Shown here piece by piece: positions 22,441 through 54,735 of a stretch of DNA of 64,000 nt. Under the pieces are notes generated by a model. It was not told the DNA's origin, did not search any database, and was given only the letters and a program-made list of their open reading frames with translations. Position 1 is the stretch's first letter. The number at the start of each line of letters is the position of its first letter. The DNA comes from Escherichia coli (lineage in GTDB: Bacteria > Pseudomonadota > Gammaproteobacteria > Enterobacterales > Enterobacteriaceae). A program made the translations under genes and the position numbers. Where the stretch lies: NCBI RefSeq assembly GCF_003790525.1, contig NZ_CP033635.1. The stretch is one strand, 5' to 3'.

Positions 22441-23895
22441 ATGTATATCGGGATAGATCTTGGCACCTCGGGCGTAAAAGTTATTTTGCTCAATGAGCAG
22501 GGTGAGGTGGTTGCTGCGCAAACGGAAAAGCTGACCGTTTCGCGCCCGCATCCACTCTGGTCGGAACAAGACCCGGAACAGTGGTGGCAGGCAACTGATC
22601 GCGCAATGAAAGCTCTGGGCGTTCAGCATTCTCTGCAAGACGTTAAAGCATTAGGTATTGCCGGACAGATGCACGGTGCAACCTTACTGGATGCCCAGCA
22701 ACGGGTATTACGCCCTGCCATTTTGTGGAACGACGGGCGCTGTGCGCAAGAGTGCACTTTGCTGGAAGCGCGAGTTCCGCAATCACGGGTGATTACCGGT
22801 AACCTGATGATGCCCGGATTTACTGCGCCTAAATTGCTATGGGTTCATCGGCATGAGCCGGAGATATTCCGTCAAATCGATAAAGTATTATTACCGAAAG
22901 ATTACTTGCGTCTGCGTATGACGGGGGAGTTTGCCAGCGATATGTCTGACGCAGCTGGCACTATGTGGCTGGATGTCGCAAAGCGTGACTGGAGCGATCT
23001 CATGCTGCAGGCTTGCCACTTATCTCGTGACCAGATGCCCGCATTATACGAAGGCAGCGAAATTACTGGTGCTTTGCTACCTGAAGTTGCGAAAGCGTGG
23101 GGTATGGCGACGGTGCCAGTTGTCGCAGGCGGTGGCGATAATGCAGCTGGTGCGGTTGGTGTGGGAATGGTTGATGCTAATCAGGCAATGTTATCGCTGG
23201 GGACGTCGGGGGTCTATTTTGCTGTCAGCGAAGGATTCTTAAGCAAGCCAGAAAGCGCCGTACACAGCTTTTGCCATGCGCTCCCGCAGCGTTGGCATTT
23301 AATGTCTGTGATGCTGAGTGCGGCTTCTTGCCTGGATTGGGCCGCAAAATTAACCGGTCTGAGCAATGTTCCAGCTTTAATCGCGGCTGCTCAACAGGCT
23401 GATGAAAGTACCGAGCCTGTCTGGTTTCTGCCTTATCTTTCCGGTGAACGTACGCCACACAACAATCCCCAGGCGAAGGGGGTTTTCTTTGGTTTGACCC
23501 ATCAACATGGTGCTAATGAACTGGCGCGAGCAGTGCTGGAAGGCGTGGGTTATGCGCTGGCAGATGGCATGGATGTCGTACATGCCTGCGGCATTAAACC
23601 GCAAAGTGTTACGCTGATTGGTGGCGGGGCTCGTAGTGAGTACTGGCGTCAGATGCTGGCGGATATCAGCGGTCAGCAGCTCGATTACCGCACAGGGGGA
23701 GATGTGGGGCCAGCACTGGGTGCAGCAAGGCTGGCGCAGATTGCGACGAATCCAGAGAAATCGCTCATTGAATTGTTGCCACAACTACCGTTAGAACAGT
23801 CGCATCTACCAGATGCGCAGCGTTATGCCGCTTATCAGCCACGACGAGAAACGTTCCGTCGCCTCTATCAGCAACTTCTGCCATTAATGGCGTAA
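22441..23895 (+). CDS. xylB: xylulokinase (FGGY family)
   Basis: 484 aa. Confidence 0.95.
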   Translation: MYIGIDLGTSGVKVILLNEQGEVVAAQTEKLTVSRPHPLWSEQDPEQWWQATDRAMKALGVQHSLQDVKALGIAGQMHGATLLDAQQRVLRPAILWNDGRCAQECTLLEARVPQSRVITGNLMMPGFTAPKLLWVHRHEPEIFRQIDKVLLPKDYLRLRMTGEFASDMSDAAGTMWLDVAKRDWSDLMLQACHLSRDQMPALYEGSEITGALLPEVAKAWGMATVPVVAGGGDNAAGAVGVGMVDANQAMLSLGTSGVYFAVSEGFLSKPESAVHSFCHALPQRWHLMSVMLSAASCLDWAAKLTGLSNVPALIAAAQQADESTEPVWFLPYLSGERTPHNNPQAKGVFFGLTHQHGANELARAVLEGVGYALADGMDVVHACGIKPQSVTLIGGGARSEYWRQMLADISGQQLDYRTGGDVGPALGAARLAQIATNPEKSLIELLPQLPLEQSHLPDAQRYAAYQPRRETFRRLYQQLLPLMA

Positions 23896-24063
23896 ACGTT
23901 ATCCCCTGCCTGACCGGGTGGGGGATAATTCACATCTATATATCTCAGTAATTAATTAATATTTAGTATGAATTTATTCTGAAAATCATTTGTTAATGGC
24001 ATTTTTCAGTTTTGTCTTTCGTTGGTTACTCGTAATGTATCGCTGGTAGATATGGAGATCGTT

Positions 24064-24405
24064 ATGAAAACCTCAAAGACTGTGGCAAAACTATTATTTG
24101 TTGTCGGGGCGCTGGTTTATCTGGTTGGGCTATGGATCTCATGCCCATTGTTAAGTGGAAAAGGCTATTTTCTTGGCGTGTTAATGACAGCAACTTTTGG
24201 CAATTATGCATATCTTCGCGCAGAAAAACTCGGGCAACTGGATGATTTTTTTATCCGCGTCTGCCAGTTGCTGGCGTTAATCACTATCGGTCTCTTGTTT
24301 ATCGGTGTTTTAAACGCACCTATCAATGCTTATGAAATGGTGATCTATCCCATCGCCTTTTTTGTCTGCTTGTTTGGTCAAATGCGTTTGTTTCGCTCGG
24401 CATGA
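24064..24405 (+). CDS. yiaB: small inner-membrane protein of the YiaA/YiaB family
   Basis: ATG at 24064 gives 113 aa; two hydrophobic segments; symbol assigned from size and K-12 order. Confidence 0.7.
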   Translation: MKTSKTVAKLLFVVGALVYLVGLWISCPLLSGKGYFLGVLMTATFGNYAYLRAEKLGQLDDFFIRVCQLLALITIGLLFIGVLNAPINAYEMVIYPIAFFVCLFGQMRLFRSA

Positions 24406-24450
24406 GCAACATAAACCTCTTACACATTCAGGAATGAAAGGAATACTGTG

Positions 24451-24888
24451 ATGGACAACAAAATATCAACCTATTCACCGGCATTTAGTATTGTGTCATG
24501 GATAGCTCTCGTTGGTGGTATCGTTACCTATCTGTTAGGACTATGGAATGCAGAGATGCAGTTAAATGAAAAAGGATATTATTTTGCCGTACTGGTATTA
24601 GGACTGTTTTCTGCGGCGTCTTATCAAAAGACCGTTCGGGACAAGTATGAAGGCATACCGACCACCTCCATTTATTATATGACTTGCCTGACGGTCTTTA
24701 TTATCTCTGTTGCGTTATTGCTGGTAGGTCTGTGGAATGCAACGTTATTACTCAGCGAAAAAGGCTTTTATGGGCTGGCTTTCTTCTTAAGCTTGTTTGG
24801 TGCAGTAGCGGTGCAGAAGAATATTCGTGATGCCGGAATAAACCCACCAAAAGAAACACAGGTTACCCAGGAAGAATACAGCGAATAA
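24451..24888 (+). CDS. yiaA: inner-membrane protein of the YiaA/YiaB family (internally duplicated)
   Basis: 145 aa; contains two copies of a GLWN…EKG(Y/F)Y…QK..RD module related to yiaB. Confidence 0.7.
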
Positions 24889-24929
24889 TTCACATAAGCC
24901 CGGTCAGTCCAATGTGACCGGGCTTTTAT

Positions 24930-25925
24930 TTAACTCACTAGTCTGTTTCTGTCGATTCGTTGTACCAGCATAGAAAGTAACAAACTCGCTGCCAACGTCG
25001 CGCAAAAGATCCAAATAATATCGAGTATTGGCCAGTTTTTAAGCTCAATCCCCCGGGTACGCAGCGCATGGATAATCAATGCATGGAACCCGTATATACC
25101 TAAAGAATGGCGTGATATCAGCCCAAGCCCGGGAACAGTGTGTGTATCCAGCGTGTTTTTAACCAGAGTCAATAGCGTGATTGCGCAGATAAAAACCATC
25201 GGCCCACAGTAAAGATACCAGGTATCGGCAAAATTTCCGCGCCACTGCAATTCATATAATGTCCCGCGAGAGATAATAAATACCCCCGTCGCAAACAGTG
25301 CGGCGCACACCCACGACAGTGCTTTATGCTGTGTGTCCATCATCCCTATAGCGCGGCCCAACATGCCATACAGGATGTAGTAAAAAGTATCGCCATTGAT
25401 ATATAAGTTAATTGGCAGCCATTCAAAACCGTCAATTTTCTGCGGCACTGTGTTTGGGTTAGCGATAATGCCAATCACCACCATTAGCACCAGCAACATT
25501 TTTCCGCCGACGTTCTTCACCTGAATCAGCGGTGAAACCAGATAAATCACCGCAATCGCGAAGAAAAACCACAAGTGGTAAAACACTGGCTTTTGCAGCA
25601 GGTTTTTCAGCGCTAACTCCATATTGATGGAGGTAAACAGCGCAATGTAGAGCAGCGCAACAGTGCTATAAAACAGCAGGCATAAGCCGATGCGCAAGAA
25701 ATGGCGCGGCTGGGCGCTGCGTTCGCCAAAAAAGAGATAGCCGGAAATCATGAAAAATAGCGGCACGCTGACACGAGAGGCAGAATTCAGAACATTGGCG
25801 ATATCCCATGTGACGGGGCTAACACTATGAGCATTGGTCACATACCAGGTAGTGGTGTGAATCATCACCACCATTAAACACGCTATCCCTCGCAGGTTAT
25901 CAATCCAGTAAATTTTGGGCTGCAT
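24930..25925 (-). CDS. wecH: membrane O-acetyltransferase (acyltransferase 3 family; enterobacterial common antigen acetylation)
   Basis: 331 aa polytopic acyltransferase_3 protein. Confidence 0.85.
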
Positions 25926-29536: not shown

Positions 29537-29770
29537 TCGCTAAATAATAGAGCAACCTTTAATAATCTTCTGCTGAATAAAGATTGTCTCATATATTAAT
29601 TTTATGAGATTTTTTTAGGATTATATCAAGGAGAAGAAACGAACTTATTAAGCTAGAATAGCTGCGGGTGCTTGAGACTGTTTGTCTCAGGTATTCACCG
29701 AAAGGCAGACAGAGAAAAGCCCCACCTGACTATAAATCAAAGTGTGTACTGACCCCAGAAAGTTGGACAG

Positions 29771-30622
29771 TTAAACACGAGGCATATAGGTCTGATTCCG
29801 ATATTCAATTGGAGTCAGACCTTTTAATTTCAGGCTAATTCTTCTGCTGTTGTAGTATTCAATATATTCCGTAACAGCATCCTTCAGCTCGCTTATATTA
29901 CTGAACTCATCAAGATAAAAACACTCCGACTTTAAGGTTCCAAAGAAACACTCCACCACAGCATTATCCAGACAATTGCCTTTTCTGGACATGCTTTGTT
30001 TAATACCATGTTCTTTAAGGATATTTTGATATCTTCTCATACGATACTGCCATCCCTGGTCAGAGTGCAGAACAGGATGCTCGTGAGGATTAAGCTTTTT
30101 GAATGCCTGATCGAGCATATTCTCGACCATGTTCATCACTGGTCTTTCCGAAAGGCTGTAAGAAATAACTTCGTTGTTGAAGAGATCTATTACTGGAGAC
30201 AAATACAGCTTGCGCCCATTGACTGCAAATTCAGTAACATCGGTAACCCACTTCTCGTTTGGCCGCGTAGCCTTGAAATCTCTTTGGAGAACATTGGGGG
30301 CGGTTTGCCCTACCTCTCCTCTGTAAGAGCGGTATCGCTTGACCTTAATCGCTGCCTTCAGTGAGAGGATTCCCATCAGGCGCTGAACAGCTTTATGGTT
30401 AATCTGTTTCCCTTCTCGATGAAGAGACAGCGTTACCCTACGGTATCCGTATCGGCCTCTATTCTCATGATAAATCTCACCAATACGCTTTTTAACGTCC
30501 GCATACTTGTCAGGCTTGCTGAGAGCCTTTAGATGGTAATAAAACGTACTGCGCGGTATCTCCGCAGCCCTGAGAAGCTCATCAAGAGGATAAAACTGCC
30601 TTAGCTCGTTGAGTACTTTCAC
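29771..30622 (-). CDS. insK: IS150 transposase OrfB (DDE catalytic domain)
   Basis: 283 aa. Confidence 0.92.
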
Positions 30623-31140
30623 TTTTTCGTGGGATGAGCTAAGGCTTTCAGCTTTTTTAGATACACAAGCCGCGTTTCAAGAAATCGAACTTGCCTTTCA
30701 AGATCCTCAATGCGTCGGTCTTTTGACAGCTCCAATGCTGATGCCGCTTTTTCTGGATCAACTGATATTGCAATGTTTCTTTTGGTGCCAATCTTGAGCG
30801 CGCGTAAACCAGCTTCTCCGCGCTCTTCATAAACCTTCAGCCACCTGGCTACAGAACCACTACCAGCAAGCATAAAGTGAGCAGCAGCCTGATTAAGAGA
30901 CATGTGCTGCTCGATCACAGCTTTCACGACCTTAATACGCAACTCAGGATCAGCACTAACACCTTTAGGTTTGGGAATTAAACCTTTTTCTCCATGTTTT
31001 TCATAGAGGGCAACCCATGTCCTGACCTGGGTTCGGGGGACACCAAAACGTGCCGAGATGATCCTGTAACCATCATCAGTAGTGAAGTAGTGATTCACGA
31101 CTTCAAGGCGCTTTTCAAAAGGGTATTTTGGCTTTGACAT
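30619..31140 (-). CDS. insJ: IS150 OrfA (HTH DNA-binding)
   Basis: 173 aa; overlaps insK as in IS3-family elements. Confidence 0.92.
   Translation of the reverse strand: MSKPKYPFEKRLEVVNHYFTTDDGYRIISARFGVPRTQVRTWVALYEKHGEKGLIPKPKGVSADPELRIKVVKAVIEQHMSLNQAAAHFMLAGSGSVARWLKVYEERGEAGLRALKIGTKRNIAISVDPEKAASALELSKDRRIEDLERQVRFLETRLVYLKKLKALAHPTKK
30652..30658 (-). promoter_or_regulatory. A-AAA-AAG slippery heptamer for the programmed -1 frameshift producing the InsJK fusion transposase
   Basis: reverse complement of cttttttag at 30652..30660 reads ctaAAAAAG, near the 3' end of insJ. Confidence 0.6.
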
Positions 31141-31219
31141 ATCAGGGGCTATTCCATTTCATCGTCCAACAAAATGGGTGCAGTACATACTCGTTGGAAA
31201 TCAACACAGGAGGCTGGGA

Positions 31220-31372
31220 ATGCCGCAGAAATATAGATTACTTTCTTTAATAGTGATTTGTTTCACGCTTTTATTTTTCACCTGGATGATAAGAGATTCA
31301 CTGTGTGAATTGCATATTAAACAGGGGAGTTATGAGCTGGCGGCGTTTTTAGCCTGCAAATTGAAAGAGTAA
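31220..31372 (+). CDS. hokA: Hok-family type I toxin; locus disrupted because IS150 lies 32 bp upstream
   Basis: 50 aa MPQKYRLLSLIVICFTLLFFTWMIRDSLCELHIKQGSYELAAFLACKLKE; hok-like mRNA 5' sequence (gtgcttgagactgtttgtctcag) is found on the far side of IS150 near 29675. Confidence 0.85.
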   Translation: MPQKYRLLSLIVICFTLLFFTWMIRDSLCELHIKQGSYELAAFLACKLKE

Positions 31373-31505: not shown

Positions 31506-31536
31506 AAAAAAATCCCCGCCATTTGGCAGGGATCTT
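31506..31536 (-). terminator. rho-independent terminator of cspA
   Basis: minus-strand hairpin atccctgcc-aaat-ggcggggat followed by T-tract. Confidence 0.7.
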
Positions 31537-31560
31537 AGATTCTGTGCTTTTAAGCAGAGA

Positions 31561-31773
31561 TTACAGGCTGGTTACGTTACCAGCTGCCGGGCCTTTAGCG
31601 CCGCTTTCGATGGTGAAGGACACTTTCTGACCTTCGTCCAGAGATTTGTAACCATCGTTCTGGATAGCAGAGAAGTGTACGAACACGTCTTTAGAGCCAT
31701 CGTCAGGAGTGATGAAGCCGAAGCCTTTGTCAGCGTTGAACCATTTTACGATACCAGTCATTTTACCGGACAT
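31561..31773 (-). CDS. cspA: major cold-shock protein CspA
   Basis: 70 aa [70 protein letters not shown]. Confidence 0.98.
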
Positions 31774-31932
31774 AGTGTATTACCTTTAATAATTAAGTGT
31801 GCCTTTCGGCGATATGGCGTGCTTTACAGATTTTGAAGCGTTAAAGGAATGTGCACTACGAGGGGTATCAACGATAACTCTTGAAGGGACTTGCCTTACT
31901 ACACTGCTTTAATGGTCTGTACGTCAAACCGT
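31774..31932 (-). promoter_or_regulatory. cspA long 5' untranslated leader (cold-responsive RNA thermosensor region)
   Basis: about 160 nt between the expected promoter and the cspA start codon; boundaries approximate. Confidence 0.55.
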
Positions 31933-32053
31933 TGATGTGCATTAAGCCACGCATTGGCGGGTGATGCAACAATTATTTTTCATATTTATGATTAATCGGT
32001 TGGAAAACGGTCCTGTCATCAGGACCGTAAACAGCAATAAAGTGGATAAAAGT

Positions 32054-50935: not shown

Positions 50936-51410
50936 AAAGTCCTGTCCAGAAAGAAGTCGGCCTCGCAAAAATGAATAAACCCAGTTTCTCTTGCGCAACA
51001 GGTGGAGAAGTCGAATACGCAGTATGTAAAAAATGAGGCAACAGATTCACTGGGGAGGTCGCGAGGAGGCGCAATTCTACAAAATTGCGCATTTCACTAC
51101 CAGTCTGGAGTCAGCCCGGATATGAACTGCAACTATTGCAAATAAAGAAATTAAGCTGGAATGCATCACGCAATGAGGAAGATTGCCGGGTGCTGACGGT
51201 AAAAAGCAATCGTAGAATCAGCGGCAAGCCGGAAAGGTTCCGGTGAGGCGCAATGTTGCGGGGGCTTAATCCCTGGTGGCATTGGTTGCTGGAGAGAGAA
51301 AACCCCCGCATATTGCAGGTATGCACCTGACAACATCACGGGGGCTAATCTTGAACCTAGACCACTCAAGAATAGCCGCGAAACGTTGTCATTACAACAC
51401 AGGCGGCTAT

Positions 51411-51518
51411 ATGACGCTCGCAGAACTGGGCATGGCCTTCTGGCATGATTTAGCGGCTCCGGTCATTGCTGGCATTCTTGCCAGCATGATCGTGAACTGG
51501 CTGAATAAGCGGAAGTAA
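51411..51518 (+). CDS. ldrD: Ldr-family type I toxin peptide (35 aa), copy 1
   Basis: MTLAELGMAFWHDLAAPVIAGILASMIVNWLNKRK. Confidence 0.85.
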   Translation: MTLAELGMAFWHDLAAPVIAGILASMIVNWLNKRK

Positions 51519-51893
51519 CGTGTCAGACGGGCGTCAGGCTGCCGTAATGGCAATTTGCGCCCGGACCAGGCCGCAGGGATAAAACTCTGCGGCCTTTTTC
51601 GTAAGAAAAATGCAACGGTTGCAAGCGGATAATATTCTGCGGAATGCGCAGCACAGAGTGAAGACGTGACGGATTCCGGAACAGAAAAACAGTCGTAGAA
51701 TCAGCGGCAAGCCGGAAAGGTTCCGGTGAGGCGCAATGTTGCGGGGGCTTTATCCCTGGTGGCATTGGTTGCTGGAGAGAGAAAACCCCCGCACGTTGCA
51801 GGTATGCACCTGACAACACCACGGGGGCTAATCTTGACTCTAGACCACTCAAGAATAGCCGCGAAACGTTGTCATTACAACACAGGCGGCTAT

Positions 51894-52001
51894 ATGACGC
51901 TCGCAGAGCTGGGCATGGCCTTCTGGCATGATTTAGCGGCTCCGGTCATTGCTGGCATTCTTGCCAGCATGATCGTGAACTGGCTGAACAAGCGGAAGTA
52001 A
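51894..52001 (+). CDS. Ldr-family type I toxin peptide (35 aa), copy 2
   Basis: identical peptide to copy 1. Confidence 0.85.
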   Translation: MTLAELGMAFWHDLAAPVIAGILASMIVNWLNKRK

Positions 52002-52377
52002 CGTGTCAGACGGGCGTCAGGCTGCCGTAATGGCAATTTGCGCCCGGACCAGGCCGCAGGGATAAAACTCTGCGGCCTTTTTCGTAAGAAAAATGCAACG
52101 GTTGCAAGCGGATAATATTCTGCGGAATGCGCAGCACAGAGTGAAGAAGTGATGGATTTCGACGAACAAAAATGGCCGTAGAATCAGCGGCAAGCCGGAA
52201 GGGTTCCGGTGAGGCGCAATGTTGCGGGGGGCTTTATCCCTGGTGGCATTGGTTGCTGGAGAGAGAAAACCCCCGCACGTTGCAGGTATGCACCTGACAA
52301 CACCACGGGGGCTAATCTTGACTCTAGACCACTCAAGAATAGCCGCGAAACGTTGTCATTACAACACAGGCGGCTAT

Positions 52378-52485
52378 ATGACGCTCGCAGAGCTGGGCAT
52401 GGCCTTCTGGCATGATTTAGCGGCTCCGGTCATTGCTGGCATTCTTGCCAGTCTGATCGTGAACTGGCTGAACAAGCGGAAGTAA
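52378..52485 (+). CDS. Ldr-family type I toxin peptide (35 aa), copy 3 (M26L)
   Basis: MTLAELGMAFWHDLAAPVIAGILASLIVNWLNKRK. Confidence 0.85.
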   Translation: MTLAELGMAFWHDLAAPVIAGILASLIVNWLNKRK

Positions 52486-52861
52486 CGTGTCAGACGGGCG
52501 TCAGGCTGCCGTAATGGCAATTTGCGCCCGGATCAGGCCGCAGGGATAAAACTCTGCGGCCTTTTTCGTAAGAAAAATGCAACGGTTGCAAGCGGATAAT
52601 ATTCTGCGGAATGCGCAGCACAGAGTGAAGACGTGACGGATTCCGGAACAGAAAAACAGTCGTAGAATCAGTGGCAAGCCGGAAGGGTTCCGGTGAGGCG
52701 CAATGTTGCGGGGGGCTTAATCCCTGGTGGCATTGGTTGCTGGAGAGAGAAAACCCCCGCACGTTGCAGGTATGCACCTGACAACATCACGGGGGCTAAT
52801 CTTGAACCTTAACAACTCAAGAATAGCCGCGAAACGTTGTCATTACAACAGAGGCGGCTAT

Positions 52862-52969
52862 ATGACGCTCGCAGAACTGGGCATGGCCTTCTGGCATGAT
52901 TTAGCGGCTCCGGTCATTGCTGGCATTCTTGCCAGTCTGATCGTGAACTCGCTGAATAAGCGGAAGTAA
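52862..52969 (+). CDS. Ldr-family type I toxin peptide (35 aa), copy 4 (M26L, W31S)
   Basis: MTLAELGMAFWHDLAAPVIAGILASLIVNSLNKRK; tgg to tcg change. Confidence 0.8.
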   Translation: MTLAELGMAFWHDLAAPVIAGILASLIVNSLNKRK

Positions 52970-53055
52970 CGTGTCATGCGGGCGTCAGGCTGCCGTAATG
53001 GCAAGTTGCGCCCGGACCAGGCCGCAGGGGTGAAACTCTGCGGCCTTTTTCGTTC

Positions 53056-54735
53056 TTATTGCGGGTAAGGCACCCAGTCGCCGCCGTTCAGGCGAACGTA
53101 CGGTTTATCCTGGTATTGAATAACTACTGCATTTGAGTTCTCGGAGACCGGTGCTGTTTGTGGCAACCCACTGGTGAGTTTTTTCCAGTCAACATTGTCT
53201 TCGGTGAAAATCTTGCCATCAAGAACCCGAACCACCAGATCGGAGATAGCCAGGAAGCTGCTCGGTTGGTCGATGACAATCGGTGCCCCCTGATGTGGTG
53301 CCTTCATGCCGAAGAATTTCACCCCAACGGGGACGTCTGTGATAGACGGGCTAGGGATATCACGTAGGCCAGATACCTGCATTCTGTCGCCCTTCAGCGC
53401 GCCGCCGTGTTCTGGCACCACGACCACCATCACTTTACGACCCGATTTCTCCAGTTCAGTAAAGAAGGCGTCCAGTTCATCAAAGAATTTCTGCGCCCGC
53501 GCTTTGTAATCCGCTGTTTTGCTGACGCCCGGATAATGGTTGCCGTCATGCAGTGGAAGCGTGTTGTAGAACGTGGCACTACGGCTGTTTTTATCTTTTT
53601 CGGTAACGTCCAGCCAGCGGTTAAGCACGGCGGTATCGTCATAAACCGGCGAACCATCAAAGCCCAGCAAAATAACCGGCAGATTTGTTTGATCCATCAA
53701 TTCGGTCTGCATGCCACCATTTTCGCGAACTTCTTTCAAAAAACCGCCGAACTGGCCGTTATGTCCCATCATCAGGTGCTGGGTAAAGCCCAGTTTCGAC
53801 AGGTTATCAAACAGATAGCAGTCATTATTTGCCGGTTGATACAGATTAGTGTGCGAAGTCTGCCCGCAGCTGGCGCGCAGTAAACGGATCGCCGCCGGGC
53901 CACTGTGGGAGGTGGCGGAGTTAAAGTTCTTGAACTCAATATCGAAATGCGACCACAGCGGATGCGACATCAACCCGGCGGCTTCAATATCCGACCAGGA
54001 AAGCGAACAGATATTAATCACCAGTAGTTCAAATGGCTGAGCATCAGCGGGCAGCGAAGACGGGAAGGTCGATTTACGTTTCGCCTCCGCGTTATAGAAA
54101 TTATTCAGCCAGGCGTTAAGGTTCGCCGTTGTTGGCGGTGCAGTTTGTGCGGGCATATCACCCACTACCGGTGCGCCACCCGTCGCCGCAACGGTTGCCG
54201 CTGCGTTACCACCCGTCGTTGTTACAGTGGTCGTCGGTTGACCGGCAGGCCACAAGGAGAAACTTGGTCCCGCCAGGGTAAGTACGTTCAGCCATAGCAG
54301 AATGGCAACCACAAAAACGGTAATGCGAATCCATTGTGACAGGAATAACCAGGCCACTAATAAAACAAAAATGGCCCCAATCATCTGCCAGTTAATAAAG
54401 CGTGTGACAAGGTCGATTAAATAATCGGTACTGAACCCCGCCACCTGCGAACCCTGGCTCATTATGCTTTCCGGGCCAGGCAACCAGGTGTCATGCCAGA
54501 ACAAAGCAAAGCCGATCGGCAGGGCAATCCAGTGGCGTAAGCGATGCAGGCTGTAGCGCGGAATGGGCATCAGCAGAAACGCGGCAAACACCAGATTGAG
54601 GAGCGGATGGAAGTTAAGATATCCTGCCCACAACAGGCCGAACTTAACCAGAAAATAGAAGTTCCAGCCGGAAAGGCCGCGCCAGTATTGCCAGAGGGAA
54701 GAAGGCATGGCGGTATTTTGCGTAAATTGAGTCAT
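53056..54735 (-). CDS. bcsG: cellulose phosphoethanolamine transferase
   Basis: 559 aa; N-terminal membrane domain plus alkaline-phosphatase-superfamily domain. Confidence 0.92.

Follow-up and report, generated by a model that had tools for sequence, protein, structure and literature searches.

The YiaAB family (PF05360, "yiaA/B two helix domain"; TCDB 9.B.44; NCBIfam NF008482 and NF008492) has E. coli YiaA and YiaB themselves as its reference members. TCDB 9.B.44 describes the YiaA-YiaB family as putative transporters, and the four TMS of its members have been reported to arise from two by duplication (PMC3061005). The duplicated c-subunits of F-type ATPases are also listed by Saier's group among the 2-to-4 TMS hairpin families (PMC3061005), and they share the mechanism seen in the YiaAB family, in which a helical hairpin is duplicated in tandem and fused. 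That YiaA and YiaB are built of repeats is already known, as reflected in the Pfam family name, the NCBIfam models, and the TCDB entry, and both proteins agree with the TCDB description of two domains (four TMS) per protein.

Here, we describe the yiaB–yiaA pair in a 64,000-nucleotide stretch of E. coli DNA (contig NZ_CP033635.1; hereafter, the window), and document how the modules of the two products correspond, their four predicted helices, and the taxonomic spread, evolutionary rates, and synteny of the two genes. The genes very probably encode paralogous small inner-membrane proteins, each a four-helix bundle of two YiaAB hairpins, which originated by the order of duplications discussed below. 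Both genes are annotated in every E. coli genome, and the finding in itself matters little; the useful outcome is a correction, namely that YiaB is a two-module, four-helix protein with a degenerate second hairpin, and not an ancestral single unit.

Organization of the yiaB–yiaA locus

In the RefSeq annotation, the gene order is xylA, xylB, yiaB, yiaA, the convergent wecH, ysaB, and glyQS (Table 1). The yiaB and yiaA genes share the same orientation, are separated by 45 bp in E. coli, and are 100% identical to the annotated genes of E. coli SMS-3-5; bases 23900–24930 of the window are also 100% identical to several other genomes. The region is matched in 5425 of 5426 complete E. coli genomes, and at least 80% of it is held by 5302 of the 5426. 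The gene coordinates and the YiaA peptides quoted in a preliminary description of this DNA are correct, and the coordinates agree with RefSeq.

Table 1. Positions of the genes, hairpin modules, and flanking elements at the yiaB–yiaA locus (window coordinates).
Feature	Position	Strand	Description
xylB	22441-23895	+	
AT-rich xylB-yiaB intergenic region	23896..24063	+	presumed yiaB promoter region
yiaB CDS	24064-24405	+	113 aa + stop; ORF, RefSeq "inner membrane protein YiaB"; four-helix inner-membrane protein
YiaB hairpin 1, aa 5-56	24076..24231	+	N-type YiaAB module
YiaB hairpin 2, aa 61-112	24244..24399	+	degenerate C-type YiaAB module (GVLNAPINAYEMVIY...LFGQMRLFR)
yiaA CDS	24451-24888	+	145 aa + stop; ORF, RefSeq annotation; four-helix inner-membrane protein
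YiaA hairpin 1, aa 12-64	24484..24642	+	N-type module ending ...QKTVRD; PF05360
YiaA hairpin 2, aa 75-127	24673..24831	+	C-type module ending ...QKNIRD; PF05360
GC-rich hairpin + T-run	24896..24925		between convergent yiaA and wecH; likely terminator
wecH	24930-25925	-	convergent with yiaA

The GC-rich hairpin between yiaA and wecH consists of 11 pairs, 7 of which are G-C, followed by TTATTT, and is likely a terminator, as judged by its match to the consensus. A second inverted repeat (TTATCCCC...GGGGATAA) lies directly behind the xylB stop codon at 23897–23931; it has no T-run, is not called by the terminator scan, and is followed by a very AT-rich stretch and then yiaB. A sigma-70 consensus scan found no plus-strand site near yiaB or yiaA, and a search for sigma-32 promoters 5' of the two genes gave no convincing match; the best site, with 10 of 14 positions, was dropped as evidence, as this score is reached 80 times within the window.

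Internal repeat of YiaA

Smith–Waterman local alignment (BLOSUM62) of the N-terminal half of YiaA with its C-terminal half gives a score of 104, compared with 24.6 ± 4.8 for shuffled sequences (z = 16.6), and this score is equalled by none of 2000 shuffles. PF05360 matches YiaA twice, at residues 12–64 (77 bits) and residues 75–127 (70.2 bits), each time over profile positions 1–53 of 53; the whole-protein score of 136.2 bits lies above the gathering threshold of 26.6 bits, and NF008482 scores 197.4 bits at a curated cut-off of 150. The motif G-L-W-N ... E-K-G-Y-Y ... Q-K-x-x-R-D is present in both hairpins, its columns are nearly invariant, and YiaA shows no difference from the family reference. 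The preliminary description had assigned two modules to YiaA and had named self-alignment as the check on this repeat; the significant alignment of the two halves and the paired PF05360 matches bear it out.

YiaB contains two modules

The view that yiaB and yiaA are tandem paralogues is upheld by BLASTP (30% identity, E = 4e-12). The same alignment places YiaB residues 7–112 on YiaA residues 15–124, spanning both YiaA modules, and the NF008492 and NF008482 models each match the other paralogue end to end. When a profile of 15 YiaB orthologues was aligned with a profile of 48 diverse YiaA-family proteins using hhalign, 109 collinear columns were obtained (probability 99.4%, E = 6.7e-22). In Smith–Waterman comparisons with shuffles, the C-terminal half of YiaB matches the C-terminal half of YiaA (z = 12.3) and does not match the N-terminal half of YiaA (z = 0.4). 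YiaB is a complete two-module, four-helix protein, and its modules match those of YiaA one-to-one and in order.

The earlier proposal that YiaB is a single module, from which YiaA would have been derived as a doubled, fused copy of the two-helix unit, appeals to the LVGLW...GKGYF motif, which is obvious just once in E. coli YiaB, to the missing repeat on direct YiaB self-comparison, and to the length of YiaB, which is 32 aa shorter than YiaA. The halves of YiaB compared directly are indeed not significantly similar, either by Smith–Waterman alignment (z = -0.2) or by hhalign with orthologue half-profiles (E = 0.038), so that the repeat in YiaB rests on transitive homology through YiaA; and since the C-terminal half matches only the C-terminal half of YiaA and not its own N-terminal half, a reading by eye shows one motif. 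The length difference is accounted for by the N- and C-terminal tails and the linker, and not by a missing module. The single-unit proposal is scarcely conceivable in view of the collinear alignment over both YiaA modules, which already refutes it, and it is further contradicted by the similarity of the C-terminal halves, which extends to the family C-module profile (E = 1.3e-12), by the four helices in the AF2 model of YiaB, and by the second module of a Citrobacter YiaB orthologue, which retains WNAP..EKG.

The degeneracy of YiaB is uneven between its two hairpins. Hairpin 1 retains LVGLW...SGKGYF and has lost QK..RD, and hairpin 2 of E. coli YiaB reads GVLN...EMVIY...MRLFR, in which the W-N…E-K-G motif is lost. 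The module consensus of the preliminary description therefore holds for YiaB in its LVGLW and GKGYF parts but not in its QK..RD part, which is replaced by YLRAEK and MRLFRS, and the combined G-L-W-N/E-K-G-Y-Y/QK..RD motif is not found in YiaB, which is degenerate despite its established homology. The Citrobacter orthologue keeps GVWNAP..LEKGLY in the second module (GVWNAPLSPLEKGLY, compared with GVLNAPINAYEMVIY in E. coli), and it is because of the degeneracy of this module in E. coli that it was overlooked at first reading.

The same degeneracy is apparent in domain scores. All model sets are matched above their cut-offs by the two proteins, with YiaB reaching 170.8 bits with NF008492 (curated cut-off 130) and 44.9 bits over the whole protein with PF05360, above the gathering threshold of 26.6 bits. 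The first PF05360 domain of YiaB (residues 6–51) scores 40.1 bits, and the second stretch alone scores 15.6 bits (E = 0.019), below the gathering score, which sets YiaB apart from the family reference. Automated domain tables can consequently show one YiaB domain, and a single PF05360 match in such a table is not to be taken as a single module.

Similarity also persists in the DNA. The codons of AFF..LFG at 24355–24378 in yiaB and 24778–24801 in yiaA are 75% identical. The (L/V)GLW codons at 24121–24141, 24532–24552, and 24721–24741, which represent three of the four hairpins, are 71–86% alike over 21 nt, and the EKGY(Y/F) codons are likewise still similar in three of the four hairpins; the fourth hairpin, module 2 of YiaB, is absent from both DNA repeat families.

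Order of the duplications

Separate N- and C-hairpin HMMs, built from 62 diverse two-module representatives of the family, distinguish the two halves of YiaB. In 20 of 20 YiaB sequences (that of the window and 19 homologues), the first half favours the N-module HMM and the second half favours the C-module HMM; for the window YiaB, the scores are 23.8 bits (N-module) versus 10.7 bits (C-module) for the first half, and 21.9 bits (C-module) versus 8.1 bits (N-module) for the second. The hhalign comparisons follow the same pattern, with E = 8.9e-14 for YiaB-N against family N and E = 1.3e-12 for YiaB-C against family C, compared with 5e-9 for YiaB-N against family C and 1e-7 for YiaB-C against family N; the family N and C profiles match each other with E = 6e-27. 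In a neighbour-joining (distance) tree of 60 modules, based on about 58 columns, the split between YiaA-N plus YiaB-N and YiaA-C plus YiaB-C has 86% bootstrap support, and YiaB-N and YiaB-C appear as sisters in 5%. The N–C architecture is present in 108 of the best 150 representatives from the YiaA search. Since YiaB-N pairs with YiaA-N and YiaB-C pairs with YiaA-C, the internal duplication is older than the yiaA/yiaB gene duplication.

The reverse order, in which a single-hairpin gene was first duplicated in tandem and each copy was then doubled internally, is extremely unlikely. Independent internal duplications do seem to occur in the family, as described below for Paenibacillus, where the repeats are 46–83% identical and cluster together, but separate doubling of yiaA and yiaB conflicts with the grouping of like modules in the tree (86% versus 5% for the YiaB halves as sisters), with the agreement of module-specific HMM scores in all 20 YiaB sequences, and with the N and C signatures common to 108 of the best 150 family representatives. 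The idea of a duplication and fusion of a small two-helix unit stands for YiaA and for the family; the part of it that fails is the assignment of roles, as YiaB does not represent that single unit and YiaA did not arise by doubling of YiaB.

Single hairpins and independent duplications

A search seeded with a Paenibacillus member of the family found single-hairpin proteins of 86–98 aa in Bacillaceae (P0452–P0499), named from Bacillus, Cytobacillus, Psychrobacillus, Domibacillus, Paenisporosarcina, Metabacillus, and Brevibacillus; the Cytobacillus firmus member is called "putative membrane protein YubF" by one source. These proteins score 50–67 bits with the proteobacterial N-module HMM and share the YiaAB module in the form RNTxAFT...IGLYN...LNEKGYY...TQKVTRDN. 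Unlike YiaA and YiaB, which have two hairpins, they have one hairpin per polypeptide and would need to pair to build an equivalent four-helix unit. The real single-unit form of the family is represented by these Bacillaceae proteins, and not by YiaB.

The two-module proteins of Paenibacillus and relatives (P0245, P0440, P0444, P0448, P0454, and P0502) have repeats that are 46–83% identical, compared with 33–47% in the proteobacterial branch. In a module tree that includes them, the Paenibacillus repeats cluster together (P0502 with 100% bootstrap support, the P0444 group with 82%), the N modules and the C modules of the proteobacterial branch form separate monophyletic groups (98% and 95%), and the split expected from one shared ancient duplication has 0% support. 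This suggests that the hairpin duplications in Paenibacillus were independent, recurrent, and of more recent date, the alternative being gene conversion between the repeats.

The single-module entries among the best 150 representatives of the YiaA search are nearly all fragments or frameshift products. Four complete proteins of 79–90 aa (P0170, P0242, P0249, and P0253) score equally with both module HMMs and are composed of the first helix of module N and the second helix of module C; in P0170, which resembles the YiaA of K. pneumoniae, the sequence from one GLWNA to the next is precisely deleted, and P0249 and P0253 (L012:132-371 and L013:1079-1324) are each found on one short contig. Single-module matches of the YiaA search were accordingly rejected as ancestors, being fragments, frameshifts, or N/C chimeras, and the four chimeras are derived variants or assembly artefacts. 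Their sequences have the form predicted for a deletion between the two repeats.

Taken further, the YiaAB hairpin may be an unusually labile unit, with repeated 2-to-4-helix fusions, reversal by deletion between repeats, and an asymmetric pseudo-heterodimer in YiaB, a tentative reading to which we give somewhat less than even chances. Fusion seems to have occurred independently on several occasions, one in the proteobacterial branch and no fewer than two or three in Paenibacillaceae, and one hairpin of YiaB may have been freed from the motif constraint to give the asymmetric pseudo-heterodimer. If this reading were true, the family would offer a compact natural series in which to follow fused membrane dimers as they form, become asymmetric, and collapse. 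The single hairpins of Bacillaceae, the Paenibacillus duplications, and the asymmetric divergence of YiaB are of interest for the evolution of repeats in membrane proteins; they do not tell what YiaA and YiaB do.

Predicted structure and topology

The AF2 model of YiaA (pLDDT 90.8) contains helices at residues 10–33, 38–66, 73–96, and 101–129, and that of YiaB (pLDDT 90.1) contains helices at residues 5–26, 30–56, 61–84, and 89–112, with predicted hairpin turns of 3–4 residues in both proteins. Topology prediction had been named in the preliminary description as a check, and the four predicted helices of YiaB are at variance with one two-helix unit. In the loops between the hydrophobic cores, YiaA has 6 lysine and arginine residues on the inferred cytoplasmic side and 1 outside, and YiaB has 4 and 1, respectively. 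This clustering of positive residues on the side where the termini and central loop lie fits an N-in/C-in arrangement, which is the likely topology of both proteins as judged from their sequences. Global topology studies reportedly placed the C-termini in the cytoplasm. Structure searches with YiaA and YiaB found nothing specific.

Distribution, rates, and origin of yiaB

The YiaA type is widespread: the scored candidates include more than 7900 clusters at 90% identity, and there are 524 representatives at 50% identity; it occurs in Enterobacterales and beyond, and its named members include Salmonella, Citrobacter, Klebsiella, Kluyvera, Erwinia, Pantoea, Hafnia, Providencia, and Yersinia. The search for the YiaB type gave 141 matches, named only from Escherichia, Shigella, Citrobacter, and Klebsiella, and no genera other than Escherichia, Salmonella, Citrobacter, and Klebsiella yielded yiaB itself. 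The xylB–yiaB–yiaA–wecH tandem recurs in contigs of Salmonella, K. pneumoniae, and Citrobacter. Hafnia and Yersinia have a lone yiaA at unrelated loci (metJ–yiaA–rpmE in Yersinia) and no yiaB.

Between genera, dN is 0.28–0.57 for yiaB, 0.09–0.17 for yiaA, 0.08–0.14 for xylB, and 0.09–0.20 for wecH, and YiaB changes at about three times the rate of YiaA; the dN/dS values are only rough, given the saturation of dS between genera. The pN of yiaB (0.23–0.40) is well below its saturated pS (0.72–0.77), 31 columns are invariant across 15 YiaB orthologues, and Escherichia, Salmonella, Citrobacter, and Klebsiella all have an uninterrupted yiaB reading frame, which varies little in length. From its restricted distribution, its faster rate, and the excess of pS over pN, it follows that YiaB is a young copy confined to one lineage, evolving fast and still under constraint.

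In two contigs, the xylB–wecH gap holds only the yiaB type: one carrying a protein named from Citrobacter freundii (L004:5001-5354) and one from Klebsiella oxytoca (L005:5001-5381). No yiaA lies within these 10-kb loci, yiaB abuts or overlaps wecH, and the fast-evolving copy is the one retained. Of the yiaB and yiaA alleles from E. coli and Shigella (P0120, P0164, P0068, P0005, and P0271), some are frameshifted; some carry an identical foreign tail, GNDSNLLIVFYVQIMPDDFVMQLHRF, which we take to be the translation of an IS1 end, and others carry a shared foreign N-terminal extension. Both yiaB and yiaA are evidently dispensable and have been struck by insertion sequences in some lineages.

These disrupted alleles, the loss of family motifs in YiaB, and an amino-acid change at about three times the rate seen in yiaA and the flanking genes could be taken to mean that yiaB is a relic left by the duplication, without function and in decay. 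Decay is very unlikely, as a relic would not be expected to keep an intact frame of similar length in four genera, 31 invariant columns in 15 orthologues, and a pN far under the saturated pS; moreover, 5302 of 5426 complete E. coli genomes retain at least 80% of the region, and yiaB is the copy kept in C. freundii and K. oxytoca.

The parsimonious reading is that yiaB arose by local tandem duplication, which is favoured by the adjacency of the two genes, by their shared orientation, and by the slightly higher identity of YiaB to enterobacterial YiaA (mostly 28–31%) than to distant family members (14–28%). An origin in which yiaB or yiaA entered the xylB–wecH gap by transfer or translocation is unlikely, although yiaA occupies unrelated loci in Yersinia and Hafnia, yiaB stands alone at the xylB–wecH locus in some species, and YiaA and YiaB are merely 30% identical. 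It has to be weighed against the 45-bp spacing in E. coli and the same orientation of the genes, an arrangement conserved in four genera, against the marginally closest relationship of YiaB to enterobacterial YiaA, and against the restriction of YiaB-type proteins to genera that also hold the tandem pair.

With local duplication as the preferred reading, the history of the two genes may be outlined in three steps. A single-hairpin gene of the YubF type, still found in Bacillaceae, would have doubled internally in an ancestor of the proteobacterial branch, converting a presumed hairpin homodimer into one fused pseudo-dimer, and the N and C modules would have acquired distinct signatures before the yiaA/yiaB gene duplication. 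Much later, the two-module yiaA-type gene would have been duplicated in tandem between xylB and wecH in the Escherichia/Salmonella/Citrobacter/Klebsiella clade. The upstream copy, yiaB, would then have sped up about three times, losing QK..RD from the ends of its helices on the cytoplasmic side and, in the case of Escherichia, W-N...E-K-G from hairpin 2 as well; present-day YiaB would be an asymmetric version under continuing purifying selection.

Functional context

The literature search found no functional study of YiaA or YiaB, and the available reports are incidental. yiaA has been used as a reporter gene under sigma-32 control (PMC10519446), and yiaB and yiaA have been described as separate transcription units activated only by the D114E mutant of Lrp (PMC10127797). 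A SoxS ChIP site has been located at Salmonella yiaB (PMC10268841), yiaB was one of the hits in a chemical-genetic screen with silver (PMC6071238), and a clone overexpressing yiaB got through round one of an alanine-export screen but no further (PMC10299036). Gene neighbourhoods in Escherichia (xylB/wecH), Yersinia (metJ/rpmE), Hafnia, and two metagenomic relatives reveal no conserved partner. Sigma-54 activator genes lie near two yiaA-family loci, and this proximity looks coincidental.

Because only one clade shows the link to xylAB and sigma-32 reportedly controls yiaA, YiaA and YiaB could be small stress-related membrane components rather than parts of xylose catabolism, although our confidence in this is low. 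With similarly low confidence, the position of yiaBA beside xylAB might be a clade-specific accident that carries no functional link, and the functional unit might be the hairpin pair, which the single-hairpin relatives would build as homodimers.

Other features of the window

An IS150 copy (about 29771–31140) lies between a match to a sok-like antitoxin RNA (29666–29762) and hokA (about 31220–31372), such that the insertion parts the hokA toxin gene from its regulator (29666–31372). On the minus strand at 31506–31933, a full match to the Rfam cspA thermoregulator (500.9 bits) covers a cold-shock gene that RefSeq labels "cspE"; on account of its position between yiaG and hokA and of this leader, the gene seems to be a mislabelled cspA. 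Between bcsG and yhjV, a tandem array with a 484-bp period (51202–53453) contains five annotated Ldr type I toxin genes and four matches to the rdlD antitoxin RNA; K-12 presumably has a single ldrD/rdlD pair at this position.
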